The notes beneath the pieces are model-generated. The model made no database searches, was not told the DNA's origin, and was given only the letters and a program-made list of their open reading frames with translations. A DNA stretch of 64,000 bases from Amoebophrya sp. A120 (taxonomy: Eukaryota > Protista > Dinoflagellata). The position numbers were made by a program, and so were the translations under genes. The DNA is taken from contig CAJINV010000023.1 of the NCBI GenBank assembly GCA_905178155.1, positions 586,289 to 650,288 on the forward strand, given 5' to 3'. This document shows, one piece after another, positions 7,701 through 47,960 of the stretch. Numbering within the stretch: the stretch's first letter is position 1; each line of letters begins with the position of its first letter.

Positions 7701-7773
7701 GTTGTGTTCAGAATTGTTGCTGCCAGTGTTCATCTACATCTCTCGTCAAAATTTCACTCTTACCGTCCCTGTG

Positions 7774-10208: not shown

Positions 10209-10607
10209 TATCAAAGAAAAAGCCGCACATCAGGATCATTATTTTAATTTTGCAGGTGATTCAGTTCTTTCTGATTTAGCATGACAAGTTGCAATCTTCC
10301 AGACATCCAGGGAAGATATTGGCGGTACATAGAGGTGTGGAAGGATTGACACGGTCCCCAAAATTTTGCCGCGATTTCTTCTTTTTATTTGTGCTCAGTC
10401 GGGTGTATTGGTACTTGTAGCGTAGTGAAAATAAGGCAATATTGATTCACACGGATCAGCTATCCGATCGATCTTGGTGAATCAATATCTGCTTTTTATT
10501 CCACTGTACGCTTTTTTTCGTGCAGAGCAGTAGATTCATTTTGTTGACTTAGACTTGATGACCCAAGTGAAGGATGCATACGCTTTTATCGTGAAAAGCA
10601 GCCGGCC

Positions 10608-13600
10608 ATGGAAAAGATAGAAAAGGCCCGCGGAGGTGGTCGTGGTGTATCAAATGCAAAAGTGTCTGGGTCTGGAAACTTGTGATGCTAAAATGTGCAT
10701 GATGAAAACACTTCCGAATTCAGCCCGGCATGACAAGTTCCCAAAACGCTTTCTCATAGGCAATCCGCATGAGAAACTGCGTTTTTGCATGGCAAAAGAG
10801 GCTGCGGCTTTTGTTGGTTATGCAATACAGATTTTCTAGGTATGGAAAGTTAGCATTACAAGTTCCAATCTTCCAGACCCAGACATTTTTACAATCCATA
10901 TGGTGCCGATTTCATTGGTATTAATGCCCGCATCCAAGAACAAAATCTTCTGGTGCGCGTAGAAGTTCTCCTTTGTGCGTACATTTTATGCATCGCAAAT
11001 ACCCCTCGATGTCTGGAAAGAATGAGATTTGTATTGCTAATTTTCGATCAACATACAAAAACCTGTATCGTATGAGCAGCAAAAGGCTGCACTCAGATTG
11101 TTGCCACCCGAACAAGAGGGCATTTCTCATGCAGGATAGGCATAGGGAAACCTTCGTAGTAAAAGCTGTGATGCTAGAGCGTATGCATCACAGACATCGC
11201 GGGTCATGCACAATTTGCATGACAAATTGCCCCAATCTTCCAGACCCAGATCGATATTTGCAATGGATACATATCTCTTTGGTACAACATTGCCCCAACC
11301 TCGGGTGGTCGTGGTAGTATCAAATGTAAAAATGTCTGGGTCTGGAAGAATGCAACTTGTGATGCTGCGTCTGCATTATCTAAAAATCTGTATTGCATGA
11401 ACAGCAAAAGAGGTCTGGTTTTGGCCACGGCGAGCGGGCATTTCTCATGCGGTATAGGCATCAGAAAGCCCTCACGAGATCTGTGATGCTAGGGCATGCA
11501 TCGCAGACATCAGGAGTCATGCAAAATGTGCATGACAAACCTTGCATCCTTCCAGACCCAGACATTTTTACACTTGATAGGTAGTACAACTACACAAGAG
11601 TATCCTATCCAACAAAAAAACTGTGTAGGTGTAACATTGTACGGAAGAGGAAGAGCAGCATCTTCACAAGTTCGTTTTGCATAATTACAGGCGGGAAATA
11701 AACCTGTCATGCGCAGCTAGTAGCAGTGGAAACGGGCGTATGAAGGTGGCCTATGAAGACCGCAGAAATTCAGCATGAAAAGTGACAACTGTTGTACATA
11801 ATTCTGCATCACAGATTTAGTGCACTCACATAGTCTTATTTTTCTTGGATACATCCTCGAGTGGGGCGGCTCCGGTTCCTATCAAAATGAAAAAAGCCCC
11901 CACTCCATATCAAATGGGAAATCTGTGATGCAGGATCTGTGTACACAAATGCGCGCTGCCTTGCAATACGGCATCGCAGCCAGGTCCGCAGCCTCGGGAG
12001 GGACATTTGGGTCTAGGTGCTTAGCATTACAAACGGCTGTCCTAAAGGCCCAACAGCATGCCAAACCGCTTTTCTATAATGGGGCGGAAGCTTCTGCACT
12101 TGTCCGCTATGCAAGACAGACGTGATTTGTGGTCTCAAATCAGCAAGACAAATTTTCGGAAGCTGCATGCCTTTTCGATATTCGGACGAGGGGGGATTTT
12201 TCCTCTCCATAGTTCCACACGGCAGTCTATCAACTGTAAAAATGTCTGGGTCTGGAAGAATCGATGTTTGTCATGCTTGTCTGGCATGAGTCTTAAATCT
12301 GTCATGCACGTTACCCAGGAGCTCTATTTTTCTGTGATGCAGAAACGCAGTCTGTCATGCAGAATAGGCAACACCTAGAAGCTCAGAAACTTGTCATGCG
12401 GAGCCAGCATTTGTAGCCCCATTATGAGACGCCGCCCAGCATCACAAGTTTCCAGACCCAGACACTTTTACATTTGGTACAGTCCTGGAGCGGTTCCGAA
12501 AAGACCACCGTATCAAAAGCAAAAATGTCTGGGTCTGGAAACTTGTAATGCTGCGTTGGGAATAGTGAATGCTCTGTACTGCTGCACAGCCAAGCATGAG
12601 AAATATCTGCGCTTCTTTGTGTTGCGTGTTTCGCATGACAAACTGCGTTTTTGCATGACAGGCAAGAGGGTCTCTTCTGTGACACGCATCACAAACTTTT
12701 TGGTCATGCCAGACAAGCATGACAACTCTCCCAATCTTTCAGACCCAGACATTTTTGCATTTGATACACGGGAAGATATCGCGACAAAAAAATGCTTCAC
12801 GGTAACCAATTTGATGGCAAGTTTTGCATCAACACAAGTTTGTCCTACATGCCAGAAAAAATTTCAATTTGCCAATCGATGTCCGTAAACGGAAATAATA
12901 AACACGGCGGTTGCAGCAATGATAAACATAAATGCGTTAATATCTTGCATGTTGTGTGGCAAGACAAACACTTCTGTGATCATGCATTTTCATCTGCGTC
13001 ACAAGTTCATATACAGTGAAACACTTTTTTCTCATTTATAAAAGACGGTGAAGTCCTATCCAAGGAAAAAACTGTGTTAGTGTAACTTCTTTGGAGGAAT
13101 AGCATCACAAATTTGCTCTGCATGACAGAGAGAGCCTGTCATGCGCGCCTAGTACGTGAAAACACGTACGAAAAGAGCTTCTGATGCATGTCCAGCATGA
13201 CACGTGTAACTGTTTTGCATTTTCTGCATCACAGACTTACACTTACACAGTTTTTTTCTTGGATAAGTCCTACTACGAGGTTTTGACTCGAAACGCTACA
13301 CCCTCATATGCATTGCAAATATGTCTGGGTCTGGATCTGGAAGTAGAATGCATGTTTGTCATGCTTGTCTGGCACGACTGAAGAGCTTGTGATGCGTGTC
13401 CAAGAAGAGACCCTCTTGCTTGTCATGCAAAACGCAGTTTGTCACGCGGAAACCGCAGCACTAAGCGGCGCAAATATTTCTCACGCTAAGCTGTGCATTA
13501 CAGAGAACTCACTATTCACAAATCAGCATTACAAGTTTCCAGACATCCAGGGATATTTGCATTTGATACCTCAACCGTTCTCGCGACATTTGCGGAAGGG

Positions 13601-16600
13601 GCGCCGCTATCCTGTGCAAAAGTATCGTAGTCGTACTAATTGCAGTATATGCATGACAAATCTTCTTTTCAAAGTAAAACAGCATGACAAATTCCATTTC
13701 TCATGCTGAGCAAATTTGTAATGCAATTCGTACTAGTACGATACTTTTGCAGTTCATAGCCGCGTCACCTATTACAGTGAAAAATGTTCCCATCCCCAAA
13801 GTCGCAAAAATTTGTGATGCATAAGGTTTTCAAATGAAGAACTTTTTATCTATGCGTGAAAGGAGTATGAACCTTTCTGCTGCAAAATCTCGGCGTGTAT
13901 CGCATCGCTTGCATGACAAGCGCCACTCTTGCTGGGGTCTTTTGCAATGCAAAATTTTTCTATTCACGATTGGAGACCTGTGATCTTCATGCTGATAGCT
14001 GCAAGAGGGCGAATGTTTCATTTGGAAAGGTTTGCAACACAAATGCTTCTCAGTTCGGGGGTGGGGGCATTTTTCACTTTGATATCACCTATCGAAAGGA
14101 AAAATCTCCCCACCCCATACCTAAACTAAAAATTTGTGATGCAGATTTGTGGTCACAAATCAGCTTTGTCATGCTAGAAGGGAAAAGATGCGGACTGTAG
14201 TGCTGGTTGGCGTGGGAAAGCCTTGCATCTTCAGCATGACAGGGGGCAGCTGGAGGAGGGAAACAGCATGACAAATTTCCTGCAAAGGAGGCCACAGCTG
14301 CGTCTCTTGGTCTTCTAGCATTACAAGTCGATTTGTGTACTCAAATACAGCATCACAAATTTCGTTTTCGATATGGGGAGGGGGGATTTTTCACTTTGAT
14401 ATCACCGTGTTGCGGTTTATCGGGACGCGACCACGTTCGCGAGCGGCATTATTGTATGCATTGCAAATATGTCTGGGTCTGGAAACTTGTAATGCGAAAG
14501 GTGAATGAGAGTTCCATTGCAATACGCAGCCACGCATGACAAATTTTTGGGCTCCTATGTGTTGCGTGTTCCGCATGGCAAGCTGCGTTTTTGCATGACG
14601 GGTAAGAAGACCGTTTGGTGCCCATGCATCACAGATTCTTGAGTCATGTCAGACATGCATGACAAATGTAGCAATCTTCCAGACCCAGACACTTTTGCAT
14701 TTGATACATTGTCCTCCAAGACGGGGGGCAAGAGGAAAGCCGCATCGTCGCAAATGTATTGCGAGGAAAAGTCCCCCCTCCCCATATCGAAAAGGTATGT
14801 TTCTGAAATTTGTGTTGGTGATTTGAGACCAGAAATCACGTCTGTCTTGCAAGAAGACAAGTGCAAAGGCTTCCGCGCCATCATGGAAGCGATTTGGCAT
14901 GCTGTTGGGCCTTAGGGGAGAGCCGTTTGTAATGCTAGACAACTAGACCCAAGCGCCCCTATCTAGGCTGAGGATCTAGCTGCAAGGCCTTACTGCAAGA
15001 CAGCGCGCGTCTGTGTACGGAAATCCAGCATCAGAAACTTCGTCATGATACGGGGTGGGGGGATTTTTCCCGACAATAAAATGGAGGCTGCGTTCTGACG
15101 TCCCTGGTGCCCCGCGGAACCTACAGCTCCAAGCCTAGCAGCGGCGCGGCTGCTCCTTATCAAAAGGAAAAATCCCCCCTCCCCAAATCGAGAAGGACAT
15201 TTGTGATGCTGGATTTGCGTACACAAATCAGATTTGCCTTGCAGTGAGGGACTCACTGCAGGCTTATATCAAGCCGAAGTGGAGAGGTCTTGGCCTAGGC
15301 GCTCAGCATGACAAAAGTCCATGCTGTAGGCCCAACAGCATCTATCACAAACCGCCCGCATAATGCGTGGGGGCCTTTTGGGTTTGCCTTCTTGCAACAC
15401 AGACACGATGTGTGACCACAAATCAGCATCACAAATTTCCAACAGTATAGCTTTTCAGTGTAGTGGGAGGGGGGATTTTTCCTCACAATACTCCGCCGAC
15501 GGTGGTCCCCGGTAGCGTCCTCGCCATGGCAGCAACTTGGACCGATATGGATTGCAAATATGTCTGGGTCCTCTGGAAACTTGTAATGCTCAAAGTGAAT
15601 GATAGACTTACTGCAATAGCAATAGGCAGCTATGCATGACAAATTTTTTGGCTGCCATGTCTTACGTCTTCCGCATGGCAAACTGGGTTTTTGCATGACA
15701 GGTAAGAGGGCCTTTTCGTGCCTATGCAACACAGATTCTCGAGTCATGCCAGACAAGCATGACAAACTTGCATTCTTCCAGACCCAGACATTTTTACATT
15801 TGATAACCGAGGGCTTGTGGCACTTTGTCGCCGAGGCATTTACGGGACTCTCTTCGCTGCCGGTAACAGAGGCAGGCGCAGTCGAGATCAGCGCGGACGC
15901 GCGGCGGGTAGGAGTGCATATCAAATGCAAAAGTGTCTGGGTCTGGAGAAGTGTAGACTTCTCATGCCGATTTTTATATGATCCATGTTGTCTGGAGTGC
16001 AGGACCTAGCATGACAGCTTCTGTGAGATCCCTATCATGCCTATCCTGCATGAGAAACTCCCTTTCAACTTGGTCAAAAGTATACCGCTTTTGGGACTCA
16101 TGCAACAAAGATTTTTGCATGCTCCAGATTTACCATGACAAGTTGCAATCTTCCAGACCCAGACATTTTTGCAATTCATCGTGCACATCGTGGAACAAAC
16201 CGCGGTATCAAATGTAAAAATGTCTGGGTCTGGAAGAGTACAAACGTGTGATGCGCATTTCAGAACACAGAAAAATCTCTCATGCATAGGCAGCAAAAGT
16301 TCCCACTTTCTGTTACCAAAGGCAGGGATTTGTCATGCGGATTCGGCATTGCGGAGGCTTCTCGAAACTTGTGATGCTAGAGCTTCCATGCCAGACCTTC
16401 TGTGTCATGCAGAAACAGCATCACTCTTCCAGACCCAGACATTTTTACACTTGATACGCGGGAGGACCTCGGGGAGCCGGGACGGGGCGGTGGGAGCTGA
16501 AAAGCACGACGCTAACAAAAGGAAAAATCGCCCCTCCCCATATCGAAATGGAAATCTGTGATGCGGGACTTGTGTACACAAATCGGATTTGTCTTGCAGT

Positions 16601-19026
16601 AGAGGACTGCGGACAGATACGAACCCGGAGTAGGGAGATTTTGGTGTAGGCGCCTAGCGAGGCAGGCAGGTACTCCGTAGGCCATACAGCATTACAAATT
16701 GCCTGCAGAACGCGGCGGGGTTTTTGGATTTGCTTTCATACGGAGACGATTTGTGGCCTCAAATCAGCATCGCAAATTTTCAGAAGTGTCCCGCTTTGGT
16801 ACGGGGAGGGGGGATTTTTTCTCACAATAGACGCCGAATTCTCCCCTGTTTGTGCATCTGTCGCGGAAGAGCCCCTTCGCGGTGCAGTTCCTGCGGGCCC
16901 TGGGGGTGAACCAGTCCCAGCTGGTCTACGGCAGGATCTTATCGTAAGGAAAAATCTCCCCTCCCCATATCGAAAAGGAACGCCTCAAAAAATTTGTGAT
17001 GCTGATTTGTGACCACAAATCGTGTCTGTCTTGCAAGAAGGCAACGGCATCCGCTCCGCCCCATTATGCAGTCGGTTTGTAATGCTGTTGGTCCTAGAGC
17101 ATAGGCGTTCCCCATGCTAAGTGCCTAGGCCAAAACCTCTGCGCACTGGCATGATATCGGCCTGCAGTCCCCTACTGCAAGGCAAATGTGATTTGTGTAC
17201 GCAAATCCAGCATCAGAAATTTTGTTTTGATATGGGGTGGGGGCTTTTTTCACTTTGATAGATCTCGGCGCAAAGGCTTGTCGTCCCCGAAATGGGCGAG
17301 TGTGGCAATCCCTCACCCGGCCACGCACAATGGCTTCGCCAGTTCCTGCAGCGAAATTTGGTGGACGCAGCCGACCAGAAAGAAGTCGGGTCGCGGCGAC
17401 TCCTGGTTCTCATTCGCAGGCGGGGGAGCCGCCCGGTGCGCAATTGGGCCGCAGTGGAGGAAGTTGGCACCCGGTACGCGGACCGTATCAAATGCAAAAA
17501 TGTCTGGGTCTGGAAGAGTGCGCAACTTGTCATGCAGATTTTCCATGACTCATGAGGTCTGGAATGCAGGAACTAGCATGACAGATTCTGTGAGATCTCT
17601 GTCATGCCTATCCTGCATCAGAAACTCCCTCTACATGAGGTCAAAAGTGGACAACTTTTGGTAAGCATGCAACACAGATTTTTACAGGATGCAGACTTAG
17701 CATGACAAGTTGCAACCTTCCAGACCCAGACATATTCGCAATGCATAGACCGACACGGACTGCAAGTCTACGTTCATAGCGGCACCGGTTCTCTCCAGAA
17801 ACATATCGAAAGGAAAAATCCCCCCTCCCCATATCAAAACGAAATTTCTGATGCTGGATTTGTGTACACAAATCCGAGCTGTCTTGCTGGAGAGCACTGC
17901 AGGCCCATACCAAGTGTGGGTAGACGAAAGGTTTTGGCCTAGGCGCTTATACATGAAGAACATCCGCGCTGTAGGCCCAACAGCATGACCACAAACCGCC
18001 TGCACAATGCGGCGGTTGCCTTCTTGCAAGACAGACGCGATTCGTGGCCACAAATCAGCATCACAAATTTCCAAAAATATGCCTTTTCGGTATGGGGAGG
18101 GGAAGTTTTTCCTTTTGATAAAGCAGGCGGCTGCGTTTGCGGCCGCGCACACCATTGTCGGCCCGCACGGCGCCGGCTTAGTGTTTATGGCCGCCGCGCT
18201 ACCCAAGAAAAAAACTGTGTTAGTGTAACTTTCTTGAAGGAAAAATAGCATGACAAGTTTGCTCTGCATGACACAGAAAACCTGTCATGTGGAGCTAGTA
18301 TCAGTGAAAACACGTACGAAAAGAGCCTCTGATGCATGTGTCTAGCATGACAGGTGATAAGTGTTTTACATACGTCTGCAACACAAAGTTACACTTACAC
18401 AGTTTTTTTCTTGGATACGCGCCGCCCGGGGTGCGCATTGTGGAGTTCATGCGGAACCAGTTGAATTTGTGCTACGCGCGCTTGTATGCATTGCAAATAT
18501 CCCTGGACGTCTGGAAGGATGCAACTTGTGATGCTGCGTCTGAACTCTACAAAAATTTGTATTGCATGAACAACAAAAGAGGTCCAGTTTTTGCCACGGC
18601 GAGAGGGCATTTCTCATGCGATATAGGCATCAGGAAGCCCTCAAAAAATCTGTTATGCTAGGGCATGCAAAGCGGACATCAGGAGTCGTGCAAAATGTGC
18701 ATTACAATCCTTGCATCCTTGCAGGCCCAGACATATTTGCAATTCATAGCTTGGCGCTCTACTTGAGCGCGGACTACCAGTGCATTCCCTACATATCCTG
18801 TGCAAAAGTATCGTACTCGTACGTTGTAGTAAAAATCTTCGCAGTTATGCATTACAAATCTAGTTGGTTAGGTAAATCCGCATTACAAATTTAATTTGTA
18901 ATGCTGAGCCAATTTGTATTGCGATTTGTACTAGTACGATACTTTTGCAGTGCATACTACAAAGACGGCGGCAATGTCTCCATTGCCCTGCTGGAGGAAT
19001 CGCTCAGCAAATGGACAAGACAATAA
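10608..19026 (+). CDS. Glycosyltransferase family 61 (DUF563)-like protein, 26 element interruptions
   Basis: Rebuilt frame contains TEGLWHFVAE, FLRALGV, LVVPEMG, LVLIRRRGSRPVRNW, QAAAFAAAHTIVGPHGAGL, IVEF...CYARL and ends at TAA 19024-19026. One junction (15158) needs a 4-nt rather than 5-nt removal. Start codon uncertain. Confidence 0.82.
13608..13758. mobile_element. Family E TIR element (~150 bp); representative copy
   Basis: Ends TATCCTGTGCAAAAGTATCGTA / TACGATACTTTTGCAGTTCATA; flanks GCCGC/GCCGC. Others: 1377-1537, 18794-18956, 55531-55675, and a degenerate copy ~6127-6566. Confidence 0.9.
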
Positions 19027-20655: not shown

Positions 20656-22642
20656 CTACGGCAGTCTTCGTGCATCAACTCCCTGCCCTAGAACTCTATC
20701 AAATGCAAATATGTCGGGGTCTGGATGACGAGTCCAGAAGTTTGTCATGCAGATTTCAGATGCCCCGCGGGGTCTGGAATGCAGGATCCAGCATGCATGA
20801 TCACAGGTTTGTTCGCAACGGCTTTGCAATGCGTATTCCGCATGTGAAATGTAGTCTTAGCACGGCCAAAAGAGGGCATCTTGTGCTACTCGCGCAAGAC
20901 AAATTTTTGTGTGACGTACAGCATGCATCACAAGTCGCACCCTGCCAGGAGAACCAGACATATTTGCATTTGATAAACCCCGTGCGTCAGTCTATGTTGT
21001 CTCGTGGACCGCTTGTGAGCGCTGCTGTCTTATCAAGTACAAAAATGTCTGGGTCTGGAAGATTGCCAGGTTTGTCATGCGTATTTTGCATGTTGGCCCA
21101 CGATGCCTGTAATGCATGACCTAGCGTCACAGATTTTGCGAATGCTTTCTGATGCGTATTCCGCATGCGAAATGTCTCTCCGTGTAGCACAAACTGGACT
21201 CCTTTTGCTGGTCTGCCACTCTAACGGTGCCTCACATCGGGTCCGACCCCCGTTAGAGCTTGACCCTATCCCCCCGAGGTCATGCCCAGAGGCATTGGTC
21301 GTAAAGGGGGTACAGTGGTTGAGGGGTAAAAAAGGTCATGCAATACAAATTTTTTTGGAATCCGAAGACAGCTTCACAAGTTGCAAAAATCTTCCAGACC
21401 CAGACATATTTGCAATGCATATGTCCTCCTCGCTGCAGCTGGAACGGCAGAGGTTGCAGCTCAGACGGAGTATCAAAAGGAAAAGTCCCCCCTCCCCATA
21501 TCGAAACGAAATTTCTGATGCTGGATTTGGATACACAAATCAGCTTTGTGTTGCAGTAGAGGACTGCACGCAGATCCGGAGCCGAGGTGCGGGCCTTTTG
21601 GTGTAGGCGCCTAGCATGGTAGACGGCTGGGCCCCTGTAGGCGTCACAGCATTACAAATCGCCTGCACGACGTAGCGGACGGCCTGCGTGTGTCTGCTTG
21701 CAAGACAGACCCGATTTGTGGCCACAAATCTGCATCACAAATTTCCAGGAGGATGCGCTTCCAATATGGGGAGGGGGGATTTTTCCTTGCAATACGGAGG
21801 AGCTCTTTGTTTGGGAATATTTTGGTAATGTCTCGGCGCGGCCAACCGACGTGGTGTTGCAGAAATGCCGGCACATAGTTATGCATTGCAAATATCCCTG
21901 GATGTCTGGAAGGTTGCAACTTGTGATGCTGTCCCTGCATTTTAAAAAAATCTGCATTGCATGACCAGCAAGAGGAGTCCACTTTGTGCTACTTGGAGAC
22001 GGCATTTCTCATGCGGAATAGGCATCAGGAGGCCCTCTAAGAGTCTGTGATGCAGATGCTAGGTTATGCATTACAGGCGTCAGGGGAGGTCATGTAAAAT
22101 TTGCGTGACAAGTCTCGCAATCTTCCAGACCCAGACATTTTTGCTGTTGATAAGAGTCTCGGCATACGAACAAAACTTTGCCTGCACGAGTGGCACTTAT
22201 CCCACGAAAAAACTGTTTCACTGTGAACTTGTGATGCATAGAATGGAGCACACAGCTATTTGTCTTGCGACACATGCAAGACATCGGTTTTTTTAACGTG
22301 TTTTCCCTTAGGGAACACGCATGGCAGGTTTTCTTGGTCATGTGTAACGAACTTGTAATGCAAAACTTGCCAGATCCTTACAGTGAAACACTTTTTTCGT
22401 GCGATAGCACTGGCGCCGCGTGTAATAATACTAGCGAGGAGGTGTGGGTCGACGGCGGGGAAACGGAGATCCAGGAAGATGTTGTACGGTTTCCGCGGCT
22501 GCTGTTCGGCGATATTGTCAATATGTGCGCTGTTGACCCGGAATGCCAAGCGATTGCCGACCCGGGCTGTGAGGGATTCAACTCCCTCGCGGATCACAGA
22601 ACCTGGTATCCTCAGCAAATAAAACAAAGCCCGCGCAATCAT
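20656..22642 (-). CDS. Hypothetical protein, 5 element interruptions
   Basis: Minus frame is open across elements 22198, 21880, 21471, 21031 and 20697 (MIARALFYLLRIPG...GKVLFVCRD...DARRLP*). Two repeat mismatches are synonymous in this frame. Confidence 0.5.
21214..21333 (+). mobile_element. 120-bp SINE-like/retroposed structured sequence nested in a family A element
   Basis: A6 tail, GGTC duplication, internal hairpin CTCTAACGG/CCGTTAGAG. Confidence 0.5.
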
Positions 22643-23525
22643 GTCGCCCAAAGTCAATGATTTACATACTTTGAGAACAACCTACTAGCAACACAAGTAC
22701 ATCAGAAGTTGTTTCAGAGTCACGCATGTAGTTGACATCAAGCTCCCCGCGCTTGCATTTTCGTGCAGTTCATCGGAAAGGACATCCGTGGATCTTCTTC
22801 ACAAAGCCGTGTCCTCATCGTGCTCGTGCTCGCTGTCGATTTACTTTTCCATCAGTGTAGCTTACAAATTATGCCAAAACAGAAACACGGTTGGCAATGT
22901 CTCCTTAACATGGGGGCGCACGTTAGAAATGTTTTGGTTGACAAACCAGAATCTCAACTACGCCCCTTTGCCTCCACGTTTAGGCAAAAGAAACGCCCCA
23001 ACGTCGACCCCGACGTCCCACCTTCGGCACCGTTTAGGCTTAGGGGTCAGGGTCTAGGGTTTGGGGTTCAGGTCGTCGGACAGGGCAGCCGCCGCCGGCC
23101 GGACGGCCGGCGGCGGCTGCCCCGGCCGACTCCGGCTTGCTCATGGTAGCTGGCGGCCCCCTGGTATGAAACTTCAACAGATTTCGCGGCCGGGAGATGA
23201 TGGCGACGGCGCCTCGGTGCCCGCCTGACCTACCCTCCCTGCGTGACAGCCGTCTGCGGCCGTTTGCAAAGGTGGAGGCAAAGTGTTTCGCACTTCTGTT
23301 TAGCATGACAACTCTGGGGCTCGTTATGTTGGACACAGTGGCCGGGAGATGATGGCGATGGCACTTCGGTGTCCGCCTGATCCATCCGCCCGGCGTCTCA
23401 AGCCATCTGTGGCCATGGTGTAACTAATGAGGGGCTGCAAGTGGTGCAACCAAGGCGTGGTCCTACATTTATTTGTTTAGCATGATGACAACTCTGGCCG
23501 GGTGGGGACGTTTTTACTCAGGATA

Positions 23526-26500
23526 CCCGGATAACTGACGCAATCAGTGCAGGCGCGAGCGCTAGCGTGAATGCTTTCGAGGCTGCCAGACACCTGCGGG
23601 CCACCCCGCAGCTAGTGCACTTCTACCGGCACCGAAGACCCCCGACTGTGACAGCCCCTATCGCCGACTTTTGGTTTCCGAGGAAACTGCGGCTGTGTCC
23701 AGCCTCAGAGATGGAAGCTTTGTTCAGCGCAGTTGGAACGGGGCAAAACGAGGCGTGTGGATGGAAGAAAAAAACGGTAACGCTAAGTCAGGCACAAGCT
23801 ATCGTAAGGAGAAATCCCCCCTATCCATATTATCGAGACGAAGTTTCTAATGCAGGAATTCCGTATACAACCGCGCGCTGTCTTGCAGTTGTAAGGCAGC
23901 GCAGCCAGATCCCCAGTCTAGGTAGGGGCGTTTGGGTTTACGCCTAGTTGTTTAGCATTACAAACGGCTGTCCCCTAGGCCCAACAGCATGCCAAATCGC
24001 TTCCATAGTGGCAAGGAAGCCTCTGCGCTTGTCTTCTTGGAAGACAGACGGGATTTGTGGTCTCAAATCAGCCACGCAAATTTTCGCGGCCATACCTTTT
24101 CAACATGGGGAGCGGAGATTTTTCCTCCCAATACAAGCCGTGAATTCGTTTGGGGGAAAGTACGTGTGTGTGGGCTGGTTGGATGAAGATGAGTGCAAGG
24201 CCAAGGAATCGTCACTCGGAAGCCGCGTGAAGTGGACTAATGGCAACAACGAATTTCTTTCCGGCATAAACGGCTTGGACATGAAAGTAGACAATGAAAA
24301 CGACTGCAAGTGTGTGCAGATATCAAGTGCAAATATGTCTGGGCCTGGGAAAATGCAGGTTTGTCATGCACGTCCTGGACCGCGTCTGTGGCCTGCAATC
24401 AAATAGTGCGCACAAAAGCAGCACAAGTCATCTTTCGCATGCTTTCTAGAAATGCCTCCTATCCCGCATGTTTCTCGTCACAAGAAGTGGGCGACTATCG
24501 GTGCGCATGCAACACAGATTTTTGTGTCCTCCTGAATTTGCATCACAACTTCACATGTTTCCAGAGGAGCCAGACATATTTGCAATCGATAGCAGAAGCT
24601 GACGTACGATCCAATGGAGTATTCCTGGGACCTTGTCGGCCTATCATACGTAAAAACGTCTGCACGCCATAGTCAAGTTGGCAAATCTGCATAGACAAAT
24701 CAACAAGTTTTGTGAGTTTATGCATGACAAGATTCCATCTCTCTGTAGTGTACTAGTGCTGTTTGGCAAGTCCAGCCGCATTACAAAGACGCCTGCTTTT
24801 TATCCTGATGTTTTCAGAGTTCTATGATCTTCCTAGAACGCGACTACAAATCCCCCTCGTGCGGATGTGCATTTACCAGGTCTTTCTGTAGATGCAAATG
24901 ATCTGCATGAGAACTACGGGGTCGTGGGGACGTTTTTGCATAGGATACGGCCTCGAGGAAAATTATGACCCAGCTGTTATTGATGCCGATTGGTGTCAGA
25001 CGCGGCAGCTCGACCATTCCAATTCCACCTTGAGTCACGGAGTGCAGCAGTTTCTTGCTATCAGCCCCTCGGACGCAGCGTCACTCACCGCCTTGAAGTA
25101 TGAGAAGTCGAGCTACGAGAACATCAACAACTTAGTCAAGGTCATTAGGAGTGAACAGTTTGAAGGGAGCTACGGCGTGACCCCTTCCCCGGCGGAAGAC
25201 ATCAAGGCTAAACTTGAGCCATCAGGAGCTTACTCGGAATATTTGTGCGTGATGCGTGTGCCCAAACCCACAATAGACGGGGCGGCAGACCTTCTTACCG
25301 ATCTCGCAGTGGGGGCGGGGTTAGTCCCGCCTTCAGGGGATGCACTCCCCAAACAAAAGTCCTACGCGTGTGTGACCCCAAAAACCAACGGCACCGAAAC
25401 AGACCCGGCGGTATTTTATGGTTGGTGCTTGGAGGAATCCATCAAGTCCGACTACCCCAGTATCTTCTTCACGAAGGGGCACAATGCGAATTTCGAGAGT
25501 AGCGGTCGCCTCGTTGGCGGTGGTGATACGCAGACTTGCATGTGCTTGCAGAAATTACCGATCGCGGTCGAGGAACACGCCTGGGTGCCGTACGGAGTCA
25601 ATTTTGGAGATGCGGGCGAAAGTGATTCGACCTACACTGACGACTGGTGTCGGGAGCAGCAGCGCCAGAATCAAACGTTCGTTTTTGCCAATGGAGGCAC
25701 GGTAACGTCAAATAATGACCTTTCCAACTTCAAACGGGAAGACAGGACACCGATCAGTGCGGATTATCAACTGCAAATATGTCTGGGTCTGGAGATTTTT
25801 GCAAGTTTGTCATGCATATTTTGGATCACGCAGCTGCTCTGAAATGCGCGCAAGAACATTTCAAGTTTTGTTCAGGTCTCCTGCAGATGCCTATTCTGCA
25901 TGAGAAACTTGCTATTTGCATAGCGAAAGCGCTTTTAGATAGTACTCAATTTGGATTCTTCCAGACCCAGACTTTTTTACTTTTAAATTTTCTAGTCGTT
26001 CTCTTCCCTGTGCTGTACAACGGTCTTGTTTCCAGACAAAACACCAGACATATTTGCATTTGATACAGCTGTGCCGGATGACAAAAAGGACACATTGTTG
26101 AACTGCCTCAAACGGAAGGACATGATGTTGTACGCTGGGCAATCTGGGTTGCTGGGCTGTTACTTTCCCCACGACGATAGGATGTCTCAGACGGTGAAGA
26201 GAAGCAATGCGACAGAAAAGTACTCGCTCACGAATCTAAAAGACGAACTAAACCTGTGCTTAGGCGACGACAGATGCTGTTACGTGCGCGTTGTAGTTCT
26301 CGGCGATTCGGAGGACTATTTGTATGAGCGGCGCGGTTATCCGAAGGACGAGTGGGAGCAACTCAGCTTTGCACGCTGCATGGTCAACAAAAATGTGAAT
26401 GGGCTGGATTACATGCGTCACTTCTACTCCTACAGAGACGTATCCAAGAAAAAAACTGCGTTCGTGTAACTTTCTTGAAGGAACAGCATGACAAGTTTGC

Positions 26501-29500
26501 ACTGCATGACACAGTAGAAACCCTGTCATGCGTAGCTAGTATCAGTGAAAACACGTACGAAAAGAGCCTCTGGCGCATGTCCAGCATGACAGGTGTAAAT
26601 GGCTTGCATCGTCTCCTGCAACACAAATTTACACTTACGCAGTTTTTTTCTTGGATAAGACGTCAGCGACATGTACACCGACTGCGTGGAAGTGACAGGG
26701 TTCGACGAAGGACCCGATACCGACGTGCTATCGAGTGAAGCCGGGAGCCTTATTGTGAGGAAAAATCCCCCCTCCCCATACTGAAAGCGCATCCTTCTGA
26801 AAATTGCAATTTGTGATGCAGCAGATTGGGGCAGGTGGCCACAAATTCATATCCGGTCTGTCATGCAAGAAGACAAAGGCAGAGAGTCCGCCGCGTCATT
26901 CAGGCGATTTGCAATGCTGCAAGGCCTACAGGACAGACGTCTGCCATGCTAGGCGCCTACACCAAAAGGCCCCTGCCCACCCTTGAGATCTGCGCGCGGT
27001 CCTTTACTGCGAGACAAGTTCGCTGCGTGTACACACGTGCCGCGTCACAGATCTCCACTTTGGTATGGGGAGAGTGGATTTTTCATTTTGATATGCCTCG
27101 GAGACTGCTACAGGAACTGCGCCTACGAGGAGGGCTGCGTCGGCTTCACTTACCGACTGGAAAATGCAGGAGAGTTTCCGTGCAAACTCAAGAAGACTCT
27201 TGACAAAATATGACAGCGCACAATCCCCCTCTCCCTCCTCCCCCTCATTTGTATAGCAAGAACAGCAATACAAACACCACCACACATGGAGCCTATGAAT
27301 GACAAATTTGTGTACCTAATGTTTTACCGTTTAGGCTTTCGGAATTAATATTTACATTGCTTGACTTCCGGGTTCTGGTAACGCATACCCCCGGCGACAG
27401 GTGACCTTGACAGGCGACCTTGACAGGCGACCTCGACAGGTGACCTCGACAGGTGACCTCGACAGGTTACCTCGACGGGTGACCCTGACAGGTGACCTTG
27501 AGAGGTGACCGCGACGGGTGAACGCCCTGCCTTCCCCCACTAGTGCTTCGCGCACTAAGCCACTATGCGCGCGCCTGGTGTGAGGCGAGGGGCGGACGCT
27601 GTCCGCCCCGATGCCGAACACCCTTCCCCCACTAGTGCTTCGCGCACTGAGCCACCACGTGCGCGCCTGGTGTGAGGCGAGGGGCGGACGCTGTCAGCCC
27701 CGATGACGAACACCCTTCCCCCACTAGCGCCACTAGGGACGGGCACAAGGCCCCAGCGTGGGGACCCTGTCCCCACGCTCGGGTGGGCCTTGTTTGTCAT
27801 ACAACAAGCAGTGCTACAAGGCAGCGACTAAATTTGGGATTTTGCATTACAAATGAGGGGGAGGGGGGGTTTGCACTGTCATACAAAACCGCTGTCGCCG
27901 ATGTTGGTGTTGCTCCGACGTTGTACTATGCTATCACATTGAAAAGTGCCCCCACCCCAGACGTTTCAAACGTTTTTGTTGCAAGGATTGCAAATGAAAA
28001 CTTTTTGATTCTGTCTTCCAGGTTTGGAGGAAGACTATCCCTGCTTCCAATTCCAAGTCGGCAAAGCAGCTTTTGCCTTACAAGCCTCACCTGTGCTGAG
28101 TCTTTTTGCAACACAGATTTTTGCTTTCCTGTCGTGAAAATTTGTCACGCCGATACATGGAAAGTGGCAAATGCCTCCGGCGTTGGGAGCTTTGCAAGAC
28201 AAACATTTCCATACTCTGGGGTGGGGGCACTTTTCATTGCAATATACGCCGAGTACGCTTCGGTGCGGATGACAAGCGAATGTCGTGCGCAGTATCAAGA
28301 AGAAGAAAAATCACCACTTCTCATATCAAAACGGAAGTCTGTGATACAGAGTTGTGGTCCCAAATCAGCTTTGTCTTGCGGAAACGAACCGGAGGCGCAT
28401 GCTGGGCCTGTTTAGGTTTCTACTAGTCTAGCTCTTCAGCATGATAGACGCTGCTGTCGTAGGCTAAACCGCATTACAGATGGCAGAGGCATTTGCGTAC
28501 ACAAATCAGCAGCACAAATTTCCTTGTGGTACATTTTCGATATGGAGAAGGGGCTTTTTTCAAGTTTATACGCAGGTGAAGGCCCCTTGGGGAGTGCTCG
28601 CGACGCTGCATTACCTGGAAAACTATGAACTTCACCTAAACCCGAACTATGAAATGTAAAAATGTCTGGGTCTGGAAACTTGTGATGCTGGTCGGCGTAT
28701 CATGGAGAGGCCACAAGTGCTGGCTCAGCATGACAAGGTTTTGAGCCTCTAGGTGTTGCCTATTCTGCATGACAAGCTGCGTTTCTGCATGACAGCAGAG
28801 TGGGGCTCTTGCGTAACGTGCATGACAGATTCAAGAGTCATGCCAGACAAGCATGACAAACATGCACTCTTCCAGACCCAGACATGTTTGCATTTGATAC
28901 GAACTACGAATGCGCAACAGCAGTGGGGGCAAAACTTGAAGGCGGCCTGAACTTTAAAGCACAGGATCGCATCGATGGCAACGGGTACCACAGGGACGTG
29001 ACCAACATTTTGGATTGTTACATGTGGTGCGCACGGGAAGCTGGCAGTGCGGGCGTGGAAAAGTATCAAAATGAAAAAACTTCCCCCCTCCCCGTATCAA
29101 ATTGGAAATCTGTGATCATCATGCGGGATGTGTTTACACAAATCAACTTTGTGCTGCAGTAGAGGACTGCAGGCAGATACAAAGCTTGCGCAGGGCCTTT
29201 TATTTGGTGTAACTGCCTTGCATGGCAGAGGCAGTCTTGTCCTCTGCGCGCCATACAGCATTACAAATTGCGTGCAAAAGGCGGCGGAGTCTCTGGCTTT
29301 GCCTTCTTGCAATACAGAGACGATCTGTGGCCACAATTCAGCGTTGCAAATCTTCAATAGTGCTTCCTTTCAGTATCTATGGGGAGGGGGGATCTTTCCT
29401 CTCAATAAAAAGTGCGACGGATTTACGTTTGACGGTGCTGGCGAGAGCTCTGCTGGATCTGCCAGACGCTGCCAGCCAATATGAAAGTGCACGACTCTCG

Positions 29501-32500
29501 CACACTCGCCGCTTTTGAATGGCATCCGCAGAAAAAGTAAGAGGCAGTGGCAGAAATGTGGCTTCCGCATGACATCAAACCGTCGCACAAGTTGTATCAC
29601 TGGTTGAGGTTGTACTTGTTCCGAAATTTGTCATGCGGATAGTGCTGAAAGGCAACATGTGGATTCGGTACTTTGCGCCACCAATGAAGGGGAGTAGGAG
29701 TGGTCGTTCAATCTCATAGCAAAAGAGGTGCCTACACAAGATGTGTGATACTGCTGGCGGAAATGGGAAAGTGTCGTACGCAGACGGGACGGAGCTTATG
29801 CATTGCAGAGATGTCTTTGTCTGTGCCCGGAAAGTAGGTGCAAACTTATGATGCGGATGCTGAAAAAGGCAAGAATTTGTGTTGCACACCAGCAAGCAAA
29901 ACGTGTGCGATTTTTGTGTCCAGGCGGGGAGGATCGACTTTTCGTTCTTTTGCGGCCTCCGACTCGGTATGGAATTATCAACGCTTTTGTATAATTTCTC
30001 ATGCTCTGTGATGTGCATTTCAAACCACGTACTTCTACTGCTGTTGTTCTCTTCCAGACCCAGACATTATCTTTGCATTTGATAGAACTCACTGCTGTGC
30101 TATTGGTGGATGCAGACGGCGATGCTGATGCCTCCACGTCTTGCCGAACGTCTCTCCTCGCGAGCGCGGGAGACATTTATGCATTGCAAATCAGAAGTCC
30201 GGGTCTGGATCTGGAAGAGTTGGAACTTGTAAAAATGCGGATTCTGGAAGAGGCAAAAATTTGTACTGCATAAGCACCAAAAGGAGCTTCCCAATTGTTC
30301 TTGCTACGTCGCCAATAGGGCATCATTTCTGATGCGGGATAGACATCAGGAGGCCTCCTGCGCAAAACCTGTAATGCGTTTGCGTGCATTAGAGACCAGA
30401 CCAGTTGCTCGATCCAAAAGATGCATGACGAATTCCTGCAACCCTCTTCCAAACCCGGATGTATTTGCATTTGATAAGATTTCCACCACAACAACCACAA
30501 CAACGTCGCCGCTGATCCAGTTTGCCGAGACGTTTATTCTGTGTAAAAACGTCCCCACAGCATAGTCATCAAGTAAGTTGGGAGCCCTGCAAGACGAATT
30601 CAGAAGTTTTGGAAGTCAAGCATGACAAGTTTTTCATCTCTTTACTTATTGTAGTGCAGCTTCGCTTAGGTCGCAAGACATAATCACGAAGCCAGCTCCT
30701 TATCCTGTTTACAGCATTACAAATTCCAAAACGTGATGGAGTATGCCTCACATGGGAATGCGCATTACATACAAGGGTGGGTGCCTGTAATTGCAAATCT
30801 GCAGGACAACTCTGGGGTGTGGGCCCCGCTTTTGCTCAGAATAACGTTTTTGAAGTCCTCATGTCGAAACCCACTCGGCCCCTCCCGTCCGCCAATGCCG
30901 GATACTCTTGGGTACACAGAGCAGCGGCTACCAGCGAAGTGGAATTTCAAGCAGGTAGCGTGCGGTGGCTACGTGGCGTCGAAGTTTCCGCTTGACGGAC
31001 AAAAAAAGACTGTTGGTAGGACTTTGGTCGATCTGTCCGACGTGCCCATTGGTTCCTCGTTGCTGTCCGCAGACAAGTATCCTGTGTAAAAACGTTCCCA
31101 CCCCATAGTTGTCGCGCAAATAATTTCCATATTCAGGAACGTTTGTCATGCGCATCCCCACAAGACGCATTTTAGTCGTGTTTTGGCATTTGTAATGCTG
31201 TAAACAGGATAAGAAACCGTACGGATTTATTACGAGGCGGCATTCCTTGCTAACCTGCACTACAACAAAGAAGAAAACTTTCCATGCGTGACTTCCAAAA
31301 CTTCTAGCTTTGTGTTGCAAAGTTTCCACGTTGTCCTTGCCTCTGGGGTGGGGACGTTTTTCCTCAGGATAAAGAGAACAACGTAACCATGTCCACGCGA
31401 CTGCCGACCATGCGCAGCCTGTTCGAAGTTTGTGCCAAAGGCTGCTCCCACCCCACAGGGCTGACGCGGGGAATGGAGATACTGAAGGTGAACGAGCGCG
31501 ATGCTACGACCAATGTTGACGCAAAAAAGTACCAATGTGCTTGCTATCATGCAGCTGGGCAATTGAACAACCGGATCGCTGCATTGGACAGTATCGAGAA
31601 GATGGACGCCTCGGGTGCACTTGCTGCGGGCACAAATTGCATAGATCCGACGCAGGGAGAGCGTGTAGACATCACACCGAGCGACGGCACCTCTGCTTCT
31701 AGTGCCATCACCGACCTGGCAACAGTCACTGACGGGACAAACGATGTCGCGTTTCAGGTTGGCAATTACCAGAAACCCGGCAAGAAAGATGATAGTTCGA
31801 ACGCGTGCGCAGATACTGATGACAAAAAGGAACTTGGCCAGTATTGCAAGGAAAAATCCCCCTCCCCATATTGAAAACATGTCCTCCCGAAAATTTGTGA
31901 CGCAGATTTGTGACCACAAATCCTCTCTGTCTTGCCAGAAGGCAAATCCAGAGAGCCCGCAAGCGGTTTGTAATGCTGTAAGGCCAACAGGGCAGAAGTC
32001 TGCCATGCTACGCCCCTACACCAAAAGGCCCATCCTTAGGCTCGCGATCTGCGTGCGGATCTTTCCTGGAACACAAATTTGATTTGTGTACACAAATCCC
32101 GCATAACAGATTTCCGTTTTGATATGTGGCGGGGGCTTTTTTCACCTTGATAGCCAGACGTGCCCGTTTATCCAAATCGACCTCGGCGCATCAGTATCAG
32201 AAGGAAAAATCTCCCCTCTCCATATCGAGACGAAGTTTCTGATGCTGGATTTCTGTACATAAATGCGCGCTGTCTTGCAATACGGCATCGCAGCCGGATC
32301 CTCAGCCTAGTTAGGGGCGTTTGGGTCTAGGTGTTTAGCATTACAACGGCTGCCCCCTAGGCCCAGAAGCATGCTAAACCGCTTCCACAATGGCGCGGAA
32401 GCCTCTGCACTTGTCTTCTTGCAAGACAGTCTCAAATCACCAATACAAATTTCCGGCGACATACCTTTTCGATATGGGGTGGGAGAATTTTTTCTGTCAA

Positions 32501-35500
32501 TAATCAGACAAGTTTGTTTCGACAGTAACTATATCAAGTTCAAATATGTCTGGCTCTCGAGTGTTGTGACGCATGTGAGTGAATAATGATCGCGCTGTAA
32601 TGCGCCGCCAAGCATGACAAATTTTTTCGTAGATCTGTGTTGTGTATTCCGCGTCAGAAGTTGCGTCTTGCATGACAGAAAAGAAGATCACTTTGGGGCC
32701 TCACAATACACAGTTCCGAGGCATACCAGACTAGAATGACAAATCTCGCAATCTTCCAGACCCAGACAGCTTTGCACATGATAAACTATCAGAGTCGCCT
32801 ACACGCCACAGGACGTGCGCAAGATGTTTTTTACGTACCCCAAGCCTGTTGATGAGACCTGTACGGGCGCGGGGAATGCCAATGAGATTGGAGACACTGC
32901 TTATGCATTGCATATATGTATGCGTCTGGAATGGTTGACTTTGTTGTAATACATGTCTTGCATTCTTGGAAAATCTGTGTTGCATGGGCAGCAAGTGAGC
33001 AGCTTTCCTTGTCATGCAAAAACGCAATTTCTGCTGCGTGTTGCGTACCAGAAACCGTGGCGAAAGCTTGTCATGCTTGGCTGCCATTGCAAGCGTTGCA
33101 ATCATGCGCAATTCATAATTACAAGCTTTCCAAACCCAGACATATTCGCACTGGATACTGCTTCTACGGAAAACACATGGGGAAACGGCGAAGAGGACGG
33201 CGATCCGGATATACCGTGTAAAAGCGTCCCTACCCCAGAGTTGTCAGTTTCTCTTTTATTCCCAACAAAGTTTGAAACTTCTCTGTGCTTTCATTTGGTC
33301 TCTTCCTTCCAATACATAAAACACTCCAGAGTTATCATGCAGATTTGCAATGACGAGAACATTTGTACCGCGCATCCCAATGATAGGCATTTCCAATGGT
33401 GCTTTGGGATTCGGAATGCGGTAAACAGGAAACAAGGCAGCTGGATTCGTCATGCGGCTGTCCTTACTAACCTGCACTAAAATCGGCACTGCAACTCGTC
33501 CTGCGCTACTCCCAAAACTTCTAGCCTTGTGTTGCAAACACCGCATCTTGACTGATTCCGGAATGGGGACGCTTCTACTCAGCATACCGAACCGCGATGC
33601 GGGGTTTCGGGTTCTTTTGACTTCTGTCGAACGCAGCACAGACTGCTCTTCATCGTCTGGCGGTAAGTGTTACGCGTCTAGTGTGGGTGATAGTTGTCCC
33701 GTGCCTGCTGAAGATACAATTTGCGAGCACGTGAAAGCCGAGGAAAACTTGAAGGGCCTGTCTCGGTTTGTTAATGGTCCATCAGATGAGTATTACGAGG
33801 CCAGCATCGACTGCCGAGGTAAGAAGGGGCAGTACGTGATTTTAGAGCTTCCCGGCTCCCCGAGCGGCCAGGTGACTCGAGCGCTCGCTGTGACCGAGAT
33901 CAGGGTGATGAGCTACCCGTACGCATCGACGCAATCTCTGTCTTATTTCTTTGAAGCCACTCCCTCCACCGAGATGGAAGACATCACTCCAGACGAGACA
34001 GGAGTCACGGCCTCGACCGTATCCCAAAGAAAAGCACACCCATAGTACTCGAAAAAATGATGCTAGTGGACAAAGTAATTTGATATGTACAAACGAGTTT
34101 TGTTCTGTACATTAAACTCCAAGTAGTGCTCATTTTGATTTCTGTTTAATTTTTGATTTTGAGGCACGAATAGTATAGCAGCACAAATCTATGATATTTT
34201 TTTTTCTGGTAGCGACGTTCTGGTGGCAAGACCGACGGTCTGACCTTTGCACAGCACAGAGAAAGGACCGACATATTAAAATTGAAAAACCCCTATAATG
34301 GCATGCGAATTGGGGAGAGACTTTCTTCTTTGCTTGGGTGTACTTTTCTGTAGGATGCAGCGAAGCAAATGGTCAGTGCACGGCCTCCAAGCTCTTGAAT
34401 GTAACGTCTGACGGCTACGTGGAAACTTCTACGTTCGCAGACACAGGTCGCACTCTGCGGTGCCCCTGGTTCCAGCTTGACTTGGTATCACATGCAAATA
34501 TGTCCGGGTCTGGACGACTGCTGACTGTGTCATGCAGCGACTAGCATGTTGACAGATCCTGTGAGGCCTTTAACTTTACGATACTTTATCCTGCATGAGA
34601 AACTTCCTCTTAGTTTGATCAAAAGTCGTGGGCAACTTCTGGTAGTCACGCAAGACAGATTTTTGTGCGACCGACAGGACGCATCACAAGAATCCTAGAA
34701 TTTTCCACAACTACACCCACACATAGTTGCAACGCATACTTGGGTGAAGGAGGCCAGTACGTCTCGAAGGTCGACATCACGGCGTATTGTGCGGAAAAAT
34801 CCTCCCTCCCCGTACATAAAAGGAAAACTTGTGATGTAGATTTGTGGTCACAAGTCACTTCCTCCTTGCAAGAAAAAGAATGCAAGCGCCGACGCGAAAG
34901 TGTGCGCCGCATTATGGAGGCGATTCGCGACGCTGTTGAGCCTACAGGTTAGGCTTTCCCCATGCTACACAGCTAGGCAATTACGCCCCTAGAGAGGCTG
35001 AGAGTCTGGCTGCAGTTCCTTACAGCAGGAGAAACCTTTATTTGTGTACGCAGTCGCAGATCCAGCATCAGAGACATTTTTCTTTCCATATGGGGAGGGG
35101 GATTTTTCATTTTCATACGGCGGAGCTGCGAGCTGAGGCCGGTGCCGCAAATGTAAACAGCGATATCTTGCGCGAACTTTTTTTTGTATATGACTCACCT
35201 CCGACATCCAACAACGACTTGGCCGACAACGAAATATCCTACAGAAAAGAAAGGCATCCGAGCAAAAAAAATTTGTTGAATTCGTGTTGCTATGTTCGTT
35301 TTCGTGACACTAAAAACTCTGTATTTCAGAGACCACAAGAAAGGACTTCTGGAGGTTAGACGGATCGAGGTCGTGCCACACATGTTTGCCATGCTGAACA
35401 TCCAAAGAAGGTTTGCTTGTGGAACCAAAAACGAAAGCGTCGCGACTGCATTTTCTCCGGTTGTGCGGCTGTTGTACTTTTCTGTGCGATACGATGCTAC

Positions 35501-47500: not shown

Positions 47501-47960
47501 AAAGCTCTGATGCGTAAAATGCACTTGGAATCGAATGCAGATAAATTTGTTATGCTTCTGGGTGCCTCCCCACCATCTCTGTGATCCACGAGAGACATGA
47601 CAAACCTCACACTCTTCCAGATCCAGGCATATTTGCATTTGATGGGCCGTAGCAAACAGCAACGAATTTCCGATCTCTATCAACTGTAAAAATGTCTGGG
47701 TCTGGAACATTCCGACACTTGTCATGCACGTTTTGCATGAGCCCTGATGTCTGTGATGCATGCCCTAGCTTCACAGATTTTTTCGGAGCTTCTTGATGCC
47801 TATTCCGCATGACAAATGCCCTCTCCGCGTAGCAAAAATTACATTCCTTTTGGTACTCATGCAATACAGATTTTTCTGGAATCCAAATGCAGCATGACAA
47901 GTTGCATTCTTCCCGACCCAGACATTTTTACATTTGATAATCTCGGATTGCACGCAATAG
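23526..47960 (+). CDS. Very large multidomain lectin/adhesin: PAN/Apple domains, ~4 fucolectin/F5-8C-like modules, Thr-rich linkers, C-terminal LamG/ConA-like domain; 54 element interruptions
   Basis: A single frame is preserved across all 54 junctions by the element+5 nt rule. PAN motifs: SLGDCYRNCAYEEGCVGFTY...CKLK and ECIGLCARNATCAGFVY. Repeated module: CPFIQIDLG/CPWFQLDLG/CPWIQADLG/CAWFQIDLG with C.G..GQYVI.ELPG...LAV.EIRV. LamG: FTYEAWIYP...GQWTHVAATV...LYLNG...VRAWNTVRTEAQI. Stop TAG at 47958-47960. 5' end uncertain. Confidence 0.85.
27343..27800. mobile_element. Nested repeat K, copy 1 (12-bp GACAGGTGACCT(T/C) tandem array plus ~80-bp tandem units)
   Basis: Shares both ends and internal arrays with 59873-60722; lies inside a family G element. 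Confidence 0.8.
27932..28244. mobile_element. Family F TIR element (~300 bp); representative copy
   Basis: Ends TATCACATTGAAAAGTGCCCCCACCCCAGA / TCTGGGGTGGGGGCACTTTTCATTGCAATA; flanks TATGC/TACGC. Others: 13770-14084, 41477-41785, 44030-44314. Confidence 0.88.
34020..34357. mobile_element. Family H old AT-rich element (second copy 35235-35491)
   Basis: Ends TATCCCAAAGAAAAGCACACCCA / TGGGTGTACTTTTCTGTAGGATG; interior decayed; frame is restored by removing element+5 nt. Confidence 0.8.
41847..42169. mobile_element. Singleton TIR element (family I)
   Basis: Ends TATGGAAGCATCAGGATCGAAATCGACAA / TTGTCAATTTCGATCCTGACACTTCCATC; flanks GCGTA/GCGTA. Confidence 0.85.
45769..45977 (+). mobile_element. 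5'-truncated retroposon-like insert in a family B TIR (shorter copy 33247-33322)
   Basis: Common 3' end CAACAAAGTT(T/C)GAAACTTCTCTGTG...TACATAAAAC; 18-bp duplication ACCCCAGAGTGAAAAATG. Confidence 0.65.

Follow-up and report, generated by a model that had tools for sequence, protein, structure and literature searches.

Host Genes and Elements in the Window

The interval 12228-12766 of the window (the whole stretch of 64,000 nucleotides that was analysed) consists of two family-A elements, 12228-12479 and 12511-12766, flanking a 31-bp exon piece, and contains 7 strict and 14 weight-matrix sites of an internal motif. It lies in a gene whose coding sequence is interrupted throughout by such elements (Table 1), and for which contigs of probable RNA origin support the 3' part. 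In the second element, the sites at 12686 and 12717 are spaced 31 bp apart and make up a pair that lies 39 bp from the right end.

Table 1. Host genes, elements and motif sites (window numbering, except where a metagenome locus is named)
Feature	Position	Strand	Details
Host gene holding 12228-12766	10550..19026	+	Start approximate; 469-codon ORF once 26 elements are removed
Duplication CAGTC of the 252-bp element	12223-12227 and 12480-12484		5 bp
Family-A element, 252 bp	12228..12479		TAT..GTA ends, ~30-bp TIRs
Same-direction pair, 31 bp apart	12266..12307	-	Sites 12266-12276 and 12297-12307; outer site 38 bp from left end
Three more sites	12330..12399	-	Starts 12330, 12350, 12389
Outward site	12439..12449	+	30 bp from right end of element 12228..12479
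Exon piece, 31 bp	12480..12510	+	Without motif; within the rebuilt 469-codon ORF
Family-A element, 256 bp	12511..12766		Duplication CACCG/CACGG
Same-direction pair, 31 bp apart	12541..12582	-	Site 12541 and weak site 12572; outer site 30 bp from left end
Sites 12594, 12633, 12653, 12686, 12717	12594..12727	+	One minus-strand site at 12615
Family-D example, 209 bp	13057..13265		One end with an inward site, the other with an outward 31-bp pair
Family-E example, 151 bp	13608..13758		Inward-pointing sites at both ends
Family-C example, 312 bp	14090..14401		Three 32-bp pairs, one mirrored
Host gene	20690..47960	+	Limits approximate; 2,590-codon ORF once 60 elements are removed; RNA-contig support
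Old element, unalignable to any family	35235..35491		Two sites, no pair; exact skip 262 = 257+5
Old family-B element	35946..36353		One site; exact skip 413 = 408+5, borders -1/+4
Family-B example, 279 bp	48005..48283		Six strong sites in one direction; three pairs 30-33 bp apart
Minimal 109-bp family, copies	L016:5259-5367, L021:12058-12166, L043:2473-2581		Two TIRs, two sites 32 bp apart

The elements have TAT..ATA ends, terminal inverted repeats (TIRs) of about 30 bp and 5-bp target site duplications (TSDs) without strong sequence preference. The direct repeat was perfect at 5 bp in 79 of 135 elements, a figure partly built in by a caller that scored 5-bp repeats, and in none at 4, 6, 7 or 8 bp; the 5-bp duplication is matched by contigs of probable RNA origin, which skip the element length plus 5. 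Being short, multi-copy and without coding capacity, with TIRs and a TSD, the elements have the features of MITEs (miniature transposable elements with inverted repeats), or non-autonomous TIR DNA transposons. When each element was cut out with one copy of its duplication, ORFs of 325, 469, 2,590 and 498 codons were restored by the removal of 9, 26, 60 and 19 elements, respectively, all on the plus strand.

Independent material was provided by 155 loci of one metagenome assembly (552 kb after overlap removal), which contained the same families as the window and no exons in common with it; because the loci were fetched with the family-A terminal pattern, family proportions among them are biased. 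A search of these loci and the window for orthologous or paralogous shared insertions found none. A second caller, given neither the motif nor the terminal bases, was run on both sets and returned 361 elements, of which 350 ended in TA..TA, falling into ten multi-copy families, and 346 began with TAT.

Two neighbouring elements at 13770-14401 carry three copies of one 5-bp duplication, and therefore the second was inserted into the duplication of the first. The two TIR arms within a copy match each other slightly better than they match those of sister copies (0.35 nt, p 5e-10), a difference that could come from pairing, from conversion or from subfamily structure; at 26441-26657 both arms share one change relative to sister copies. 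Element lengths, examined for a periodicity near 10.4 bp, gave R 0.24 at 10.1 bp, with equal peaks at 9.0 and 11.4. Nucleosome-sized exons between elements were considered and rejected, exon lengths ranging from 0 to 812 with many of 20-90. Rfam gave 0 matches, and a homologue search with one exon found none.

Sequence and Distribution of the Motif

The motif GCATNACAA had been described as frequent in the elements and nearly absent from exons. It was found 237 times as a strict match in the 64-kb window, against 3.72 expected and a maximum of 9 in 100 shuffles. The proposed comparison of elements with exons placed 229 of the 237 matches within 134 curated elements (40,975 bp) and 0 in the rebuilt exons and ORFs (11,646 bp); both observations were thus confirmed, the exon zero being background level and not depletion, since about 0.7 matches would be expected there from the window shuffle-based rate. 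The remaining 8 matches belong to element pieces at the window edges or at an N gap, or to uncalled ones.

A weight matrix trained on the elements extended the motif to the 11-mer GCATBACARAY, with base 5 free. At this wobble base the strict matches have G (114), C (70) or T (50), as originally described, and A in only 3 of 237. All ten multi-copy families found by the motif-blind caller contain the motif, at 2.0-6.2 sites per element; among the non-TA singleton calls without element sequence, 8 of 9, read by eye, have 0-1 sites. A different TIR-like element, of 323 bp with TT..AA ends (L053:2011-2333), is without the motif and can serve as a negative control. In viral contigs 120 loci with a motif pair were found, none resembling the elements, and their number is about that of chance by a rough estimate. 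The motif may resemble lac/CRP half-sites and Sox-Oct and ApiAP2 motifs, a likeness that was not used as evidence.

The families had been described as having unrelated TIRs, which holds in part. The TAT start is common to them, and A-runs at TIR positions 11-13 were seen in 7/7 families tabulated; families L, M and I keep TAT and are without the A-run.

Spacing and Orientation of the Sites

The spacing of the sites, for which a periodicity check had been proposed, proved far from random: same-direction pairs 31-33 bp apart numbered 148, against 18.7 with randomised positions (maximum 31 in 300). Such a pair was present in 236 of 284 metagenome elements and in nine of the ten families, the exception being family M (0/8). 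The spacers between paired sites have no consensus in common, yet the spacing is kept. The smallest family, of 109 bp, consists of a TIR, two sites 32 bp apart and a TIR. Inverted pairs 14 and 18 bp apart recur in families D, E, A and I.

Measured from the element end, the outermost outward sites fall mostly at 29-30 or 37-41 bp, with about one helical turn between the two clusters; in family C the distance is 41 bp at one end, and at the other the commonest detected site lies at 52 bp. The mirrored layout originally described, with TTGTNATGC inside the left end and GCATNACAA inside the right, applies to 174 of 258 ends and prevails in families A, C, H, L, M and I. It does not extend to the 45 of 258 ends with inward-pointing sites, which are found at one end in families B, D and K and at both ends in E and J. 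All strong sites of families B and K face one direction. The motif is repeated at set spacing near both ends and is under selection (see below), as in a subterminal transposase-binding array.

Conservation of the Motif Core

In cross-family alignments the z-scores were 1.4-13.2, and at most 1.7 when the motif sites were masked. Within families the scores remained at 10.8-52.8 on masking for seven families; in E, I and K this control itself dropped to 1.0-1.9, so that the masked alignment lacks power for these three. With that reservation for E, I and K, the similarity of the interiors is not explained by alignable common ancestry, since it is gone once the sites are masked.

For substitution rates, subfamilies of five or more members were placed on trees (282 copies). 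Relative to the interior, the motif's seven core positions changed at 0.19x on internal and 0.45x on terminal branches, and the wobble base at 1.09x and 0.93x, respectively. TIR positions 14-30 are family-specific yet conserved (0.37x internal, 0.71x terminal); rates at the TAT ends are biased because the elements were called on those ends. Between subfamily consensuses (10 pairs) the core is 74-95% identical and the interior down to 48-70%. Copies within one family are not independent, and the effective sample is about ten families. The motif core is under purifying selection and the wobble base is neutral.

The contrast in these rates contradicts the reading of the motif as a functionless relic of common ancestry or of an old tandem duplication within the elements. 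All families have TAT ends and 5-bp duplications and therefore probably belong to one superfamily, and families D and E have a 45-bp three-site module in common. Common ancestry could explain the origin of the motif but not its retention: the core is conserved beside a neutral wobble base, similarity is lost on masking, and the spacers differ while their length is kept. We regard a relic as extremely improbable.

Decay of the Sites with Element Age

As the original prediction had proposed to examine, the motif decays with element age: site density falls with distance from the nearest relative from 2.74 to 1.18 per 100 bp (Spearman 0.59, n=130). Core divergence was 5.5% at perfect TSDs and 13.1% at TSDs with three or fewer matches, interior divergence rising over the same range from 15.9% to 25.2%; from TSDs with five matches to those with four, the core gained 0.020 and the interior 0.054. 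The core/interior gain ratio of 0.37-0.82 is a lower bound, because older copies also hold more lineage divergence. This pattern fits neutral or mildly slowed change of the core after insertion. Some selection on the core after insertion is possible, given the terminal-branch rate and the smaller core gain between the two best-preserved TSD classes.

In the non-element DNA of the metagenome loci 73 strict sites remained, against 12.3 expected (11 against 4.2 in long ORFs). Some of them fall in barely recognisable, decayed old elements; when TIRs were sought around 55 of the 73, the scores for the most part overlapped the null.

Removal of the Elements from Transcripts

Contigs of four sequencing runs from one sample, which are probably RNA (a guess as to their status), skip the element length plus 5 at 15/15 joints, among the joints listed, and the arithmetic of contig pieces was exact in 6/6 intervals. 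In all, 40 elements are absent from these contigs exactly to length, two of which (35235 and 41847, the latter resting on a loose end read by hand) were added after the RNA data had been inspected. A family-A element at 19030-19284, just 3' of the stop codon of the 469-codon ORF, is also absent from a contig by interval arithmetic. Contigs of a fifth run contain unjoined junctions. Two raw RNA runs contributed 3 and 9 reads, too few to be informative.

Where diverged duplications fix its position, the cut falls 1 nt ahead of TAT and 4 nt past ATA (-1/+4). Two joints, at 35234-35495 and 35945-36357, are unambiguous in this way, and 16/16 checked are compatible with this rule, which is constant whatever the distance of the motif from the end. 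The donor is therefore NT and the acceptor arbitrary. G is enriched at -1, giving GT donors at 46 of 114 elements (p 0.006 against an assumed 0.29); AG acceptors are not enriched (8/114).

Among the 40 verified elements, 17 without a pair and 3 with one site were all removed exactly, as was element 27209, which is split by a nested insertion of about 450 bp. A motif-poor repeat that has short tandem arrays sits inside two different elements, at 27345-27790 (in element 27209) and at 59875-60700, and at 8875-9645 a motif-free insertion of about 770 bp divides a family-D element.

DNA or RNA as the Level of Action

Had the motif acted in the pre-mRNA, as the site of an RNA-binding splicing factor or as hairpin arms, traces of base pairing or of strand preference would be looked for. 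Inverted pairs 14 and 18 bp apart do recur, the interiors often fold better than shuffles (in C, E and some A elements, with z of about -2 to -7.6), and in some inverted pairs concordance is in excess at positions 6, 8 or 9 (p 0.001-0.01, with family structure uncorrected). However, the wobble bases of inverted pairs are not complementary, their counts being at or near permutation means (11/42 against 15.1, 9/18 against 6.8 and 25/62 against 25.9), and sites in ORFs number 271 in sense against 232 in antisense. Family B, whose strong sites face one direction, is removed exactly in both orientations (9 against 6 in ORFs), sense-strand TIR stems have no excess of G-U over A-C (80 against 102), and spacing at three turns across unrelated spacers is what duplex DNA would be expected to show. 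An RNA role is thus rated as very unlikely.

Two of the options in the original prediction are affected. Internal RNA hairpins are disfavoured because the wobbles of inverted pairs are not complementary and the strong sites of B and K all have one direction. A protein that marks introns on the RNA is disfavoured too, since exact removal of family B takes place in either orientation; the DNA-level form of that option stands, at the low probability given next.

According to that form, a host factor on the DNA at the motif would mark non-canonical introns for co-transcriptional removal, replacing the U1 snRNA, and at least one site per intron would be retained after insertion. A DNA mark is orientation-independent, so that the two-orientation removal data leave it untouched, and U1 was not detected in this lineage, as far as the available part of PMC7789003 goes. 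None of the 114 in-ORF elements is without a site, but the missing zero class is without power, 0.3 being expected. Elements with two or fewer sites keep a strong one in 10 of 11 cases, against about 6 under neutral point decay (p about 0.01 by hand), in a simulation that ignores deletions, which leave perfect sites. The residual sites in non-element DNA and the reduced terminal-branch core rate point the same way. Against the mark, the cuts are tied to the TAT/ATA ends while the distance of the motif varies by family, pairs are dispensable for removal (17/40), the split element 27209 is removed exactly, and constraint is strongest on the transposition lineages. We consider such a mark unlikely.

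Proposed Function of the Motif

GCATBACARAY is most probably a conserved cis-site of ten non-autonomous, intron-forming TIR families, and a putative double-stranded DNA binding site needed for transposition. The original proposal of a site for one shared trans-acting factor is supported, because the masked interiors are unalignable, the core is kept beside a neutral wobble, and the spacing is fixed at three turns; among a subterminal transposase site, an intron-marking protein and RNA hairpins, the first fits best. One protein would bind two sites three turns apart, on one face of the helix, the outermost bound site sitting 29-30 or 37-41 bp from the element end. The bound protein would bring the TAT ends to a DDE active site for a 5-nt staggered cut, and splicing would be positioned by the paired ends (-1/+4) and not by the motif.

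The putative binder might well be a common transposase, an assignment we make tentatively; a host cofactor serving several transposases is a rather less probable identity. The family-specific, conserved TIR arms suggest several transposases with a common cofactor. What the families share, namely the TAT ends, the length of the duplication and the motif, points to a single enzyme, the arms being retained as complements and nothing else. In the 120 longest of 249 ORFs there were 0 matches to a transposase or integrase family, and no autonomous partner with matching ends was found in the approximately 0.6 Mb examined. Two long TA..TA elements (L020:505-1608 and L027:632-1465) were rejected as autonomous candidates, being read as nested insertions.

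It is also conceivable, though quite unlikely, that one DNA-bound protein both mobilises the elements and stays bound, marking them for exact, U1-independent removal. Its substrate would be any TAT-ended sequence with self-complementary arms and a three-turn motif pair; the motif array would be the real identity tag of the elements, with removal at -1/+4. Transposition and non-canonical splicing would then use one DNA-level signal.

For the approximately 30,000 A120 introners, PMC7789003 reports neither a transposase nor a U1 snRNA in that strain. A motif common to all families offers a concrete DNA bait for the factor and a probe for an autonomous element genome-wide, with the 109-bp family as a minimal substrate, and the -1/+4 rule provides the splicing reaction with a geometry open to testing. 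Should the motif mark introns as well, intron recognition would have a DNA-level route.

Comparison with Known Systems

The elements were matched to A120 introners by features and family sizes. For those introners the available text of PMC7789003 gives an inverted-repeat consensus of TAT, 7 nt and an A-run, direct repeats (5 bp) and non-canonical borders, and within the same text no transposase is reported in A120. The window elements likewise have TAT, 7 variable nt and an A-run (the latter not in L, M and I), border repeats and non-canonical removal. Sizes of 106, 149, 208-209, 252-261, 277-279 and 319-322 bp in the A120 dataset match families K, E, D, A, B and C (PMC12130899, in its accessible portion). 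As far as the available parts of PMC7789003 and PMC12130899 extend, terminal repeats are the only ones described, and neither an internal motif nor a rule for the spacing, nor a single -1/+4 rule for the borders, is mentioned. No report of GCATBACARAY was found in the introner literature searched, which included the accessible text of PMC7789003, PMC12130899, PMC11282704 and PMC11453091. The elements are already published, and the internal motif is a real, selected and apparently undescribed feature of them.

The P element has, in the part of PMC7776569 available, internal 10-bp sites 9 or 21 bp inside 31-bp TIRs. The present elements resemble it in a TIR of about 30 bp followed by an internal 10-11-bp site at two spacings about one helical turn apart. 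They differ in that P has 8-bp duplications and one family-specific site per end, whereas here the duplications are of 5 bp and 2-7 sites per element are common to ten TIR types. Membership in the P superfamily was rejected, the TSD being 5 bp and not 8 bp.

Arrays of TnsB binding sites at the ends of Tn7 (PMC9308760) and subterminal motifs of the Emigrant MITE (PMC1636448), both as given in accessible sections, are alike in that internal sites are repeated, spacing matters, and small non-coding elements are moved in trans. Each of those arrays, however, belongs to one family with its own TIR, and its protein has been identified; in the present elements the array is the main sequence common to non-alignable families, and the binding protein is putative.

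A 5-bp duplication is shared with TDD-4/5 of the Ginger/TDD group, and Ginger termini are TGTNR (PMC2836005, available part). In the accessible portion of PMC12130899, A120 fam38 is filed in the dataset as Ginger with "5-bp TSD, TA/TA termini", and the text describes fam38 as without Ginger termini. Ginger membership was rejected here, since 350 of 361 elements end in TA..TA, with a TAT start, and not in TGTNR.

The 5-bp duplication would also suit an integrase-like enzyme, for which the motif, as an internal promoter-like site, would yield an intermediate of RNA or cDNA; in the available part of PMC12130899, LTR-element homology is given for one A120 family with TA/TA termini. The sites, however, face both ways in layouts that differ among families, the TIRs point to DNA transposition, and the sequences examined show no LTR, primer site or poly-A tail; a promoter is accordingly given hardly any weight.

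Euglenid nonconventional introns, in the accessible text of PMC11282704, similarly have non-canonical junctions beside paired terminal repeats and TSD-like repeats. Their conserved signal, in contrast, is terminal (CAG/CTG), and no internal shared motif is described in that text.

Other Features of the Window

An array of imperfect direct repeats of about 60-120 bp, unrelated to the TAT elements, lies at 50190-51030. The element-poor stretch around it has one short sequence three times (49170-49225, 51290-51345 and 53375-53435) and a second one also three times (52085-52130, 53620-53665 and 54650-54700); these two sequences may be the ends of longer mobile elements. Finally, the segment at 3848-4050, 5' of the N gap, duplicates 7596-7730 and 4816-4866, possibly as an assembly artefact.
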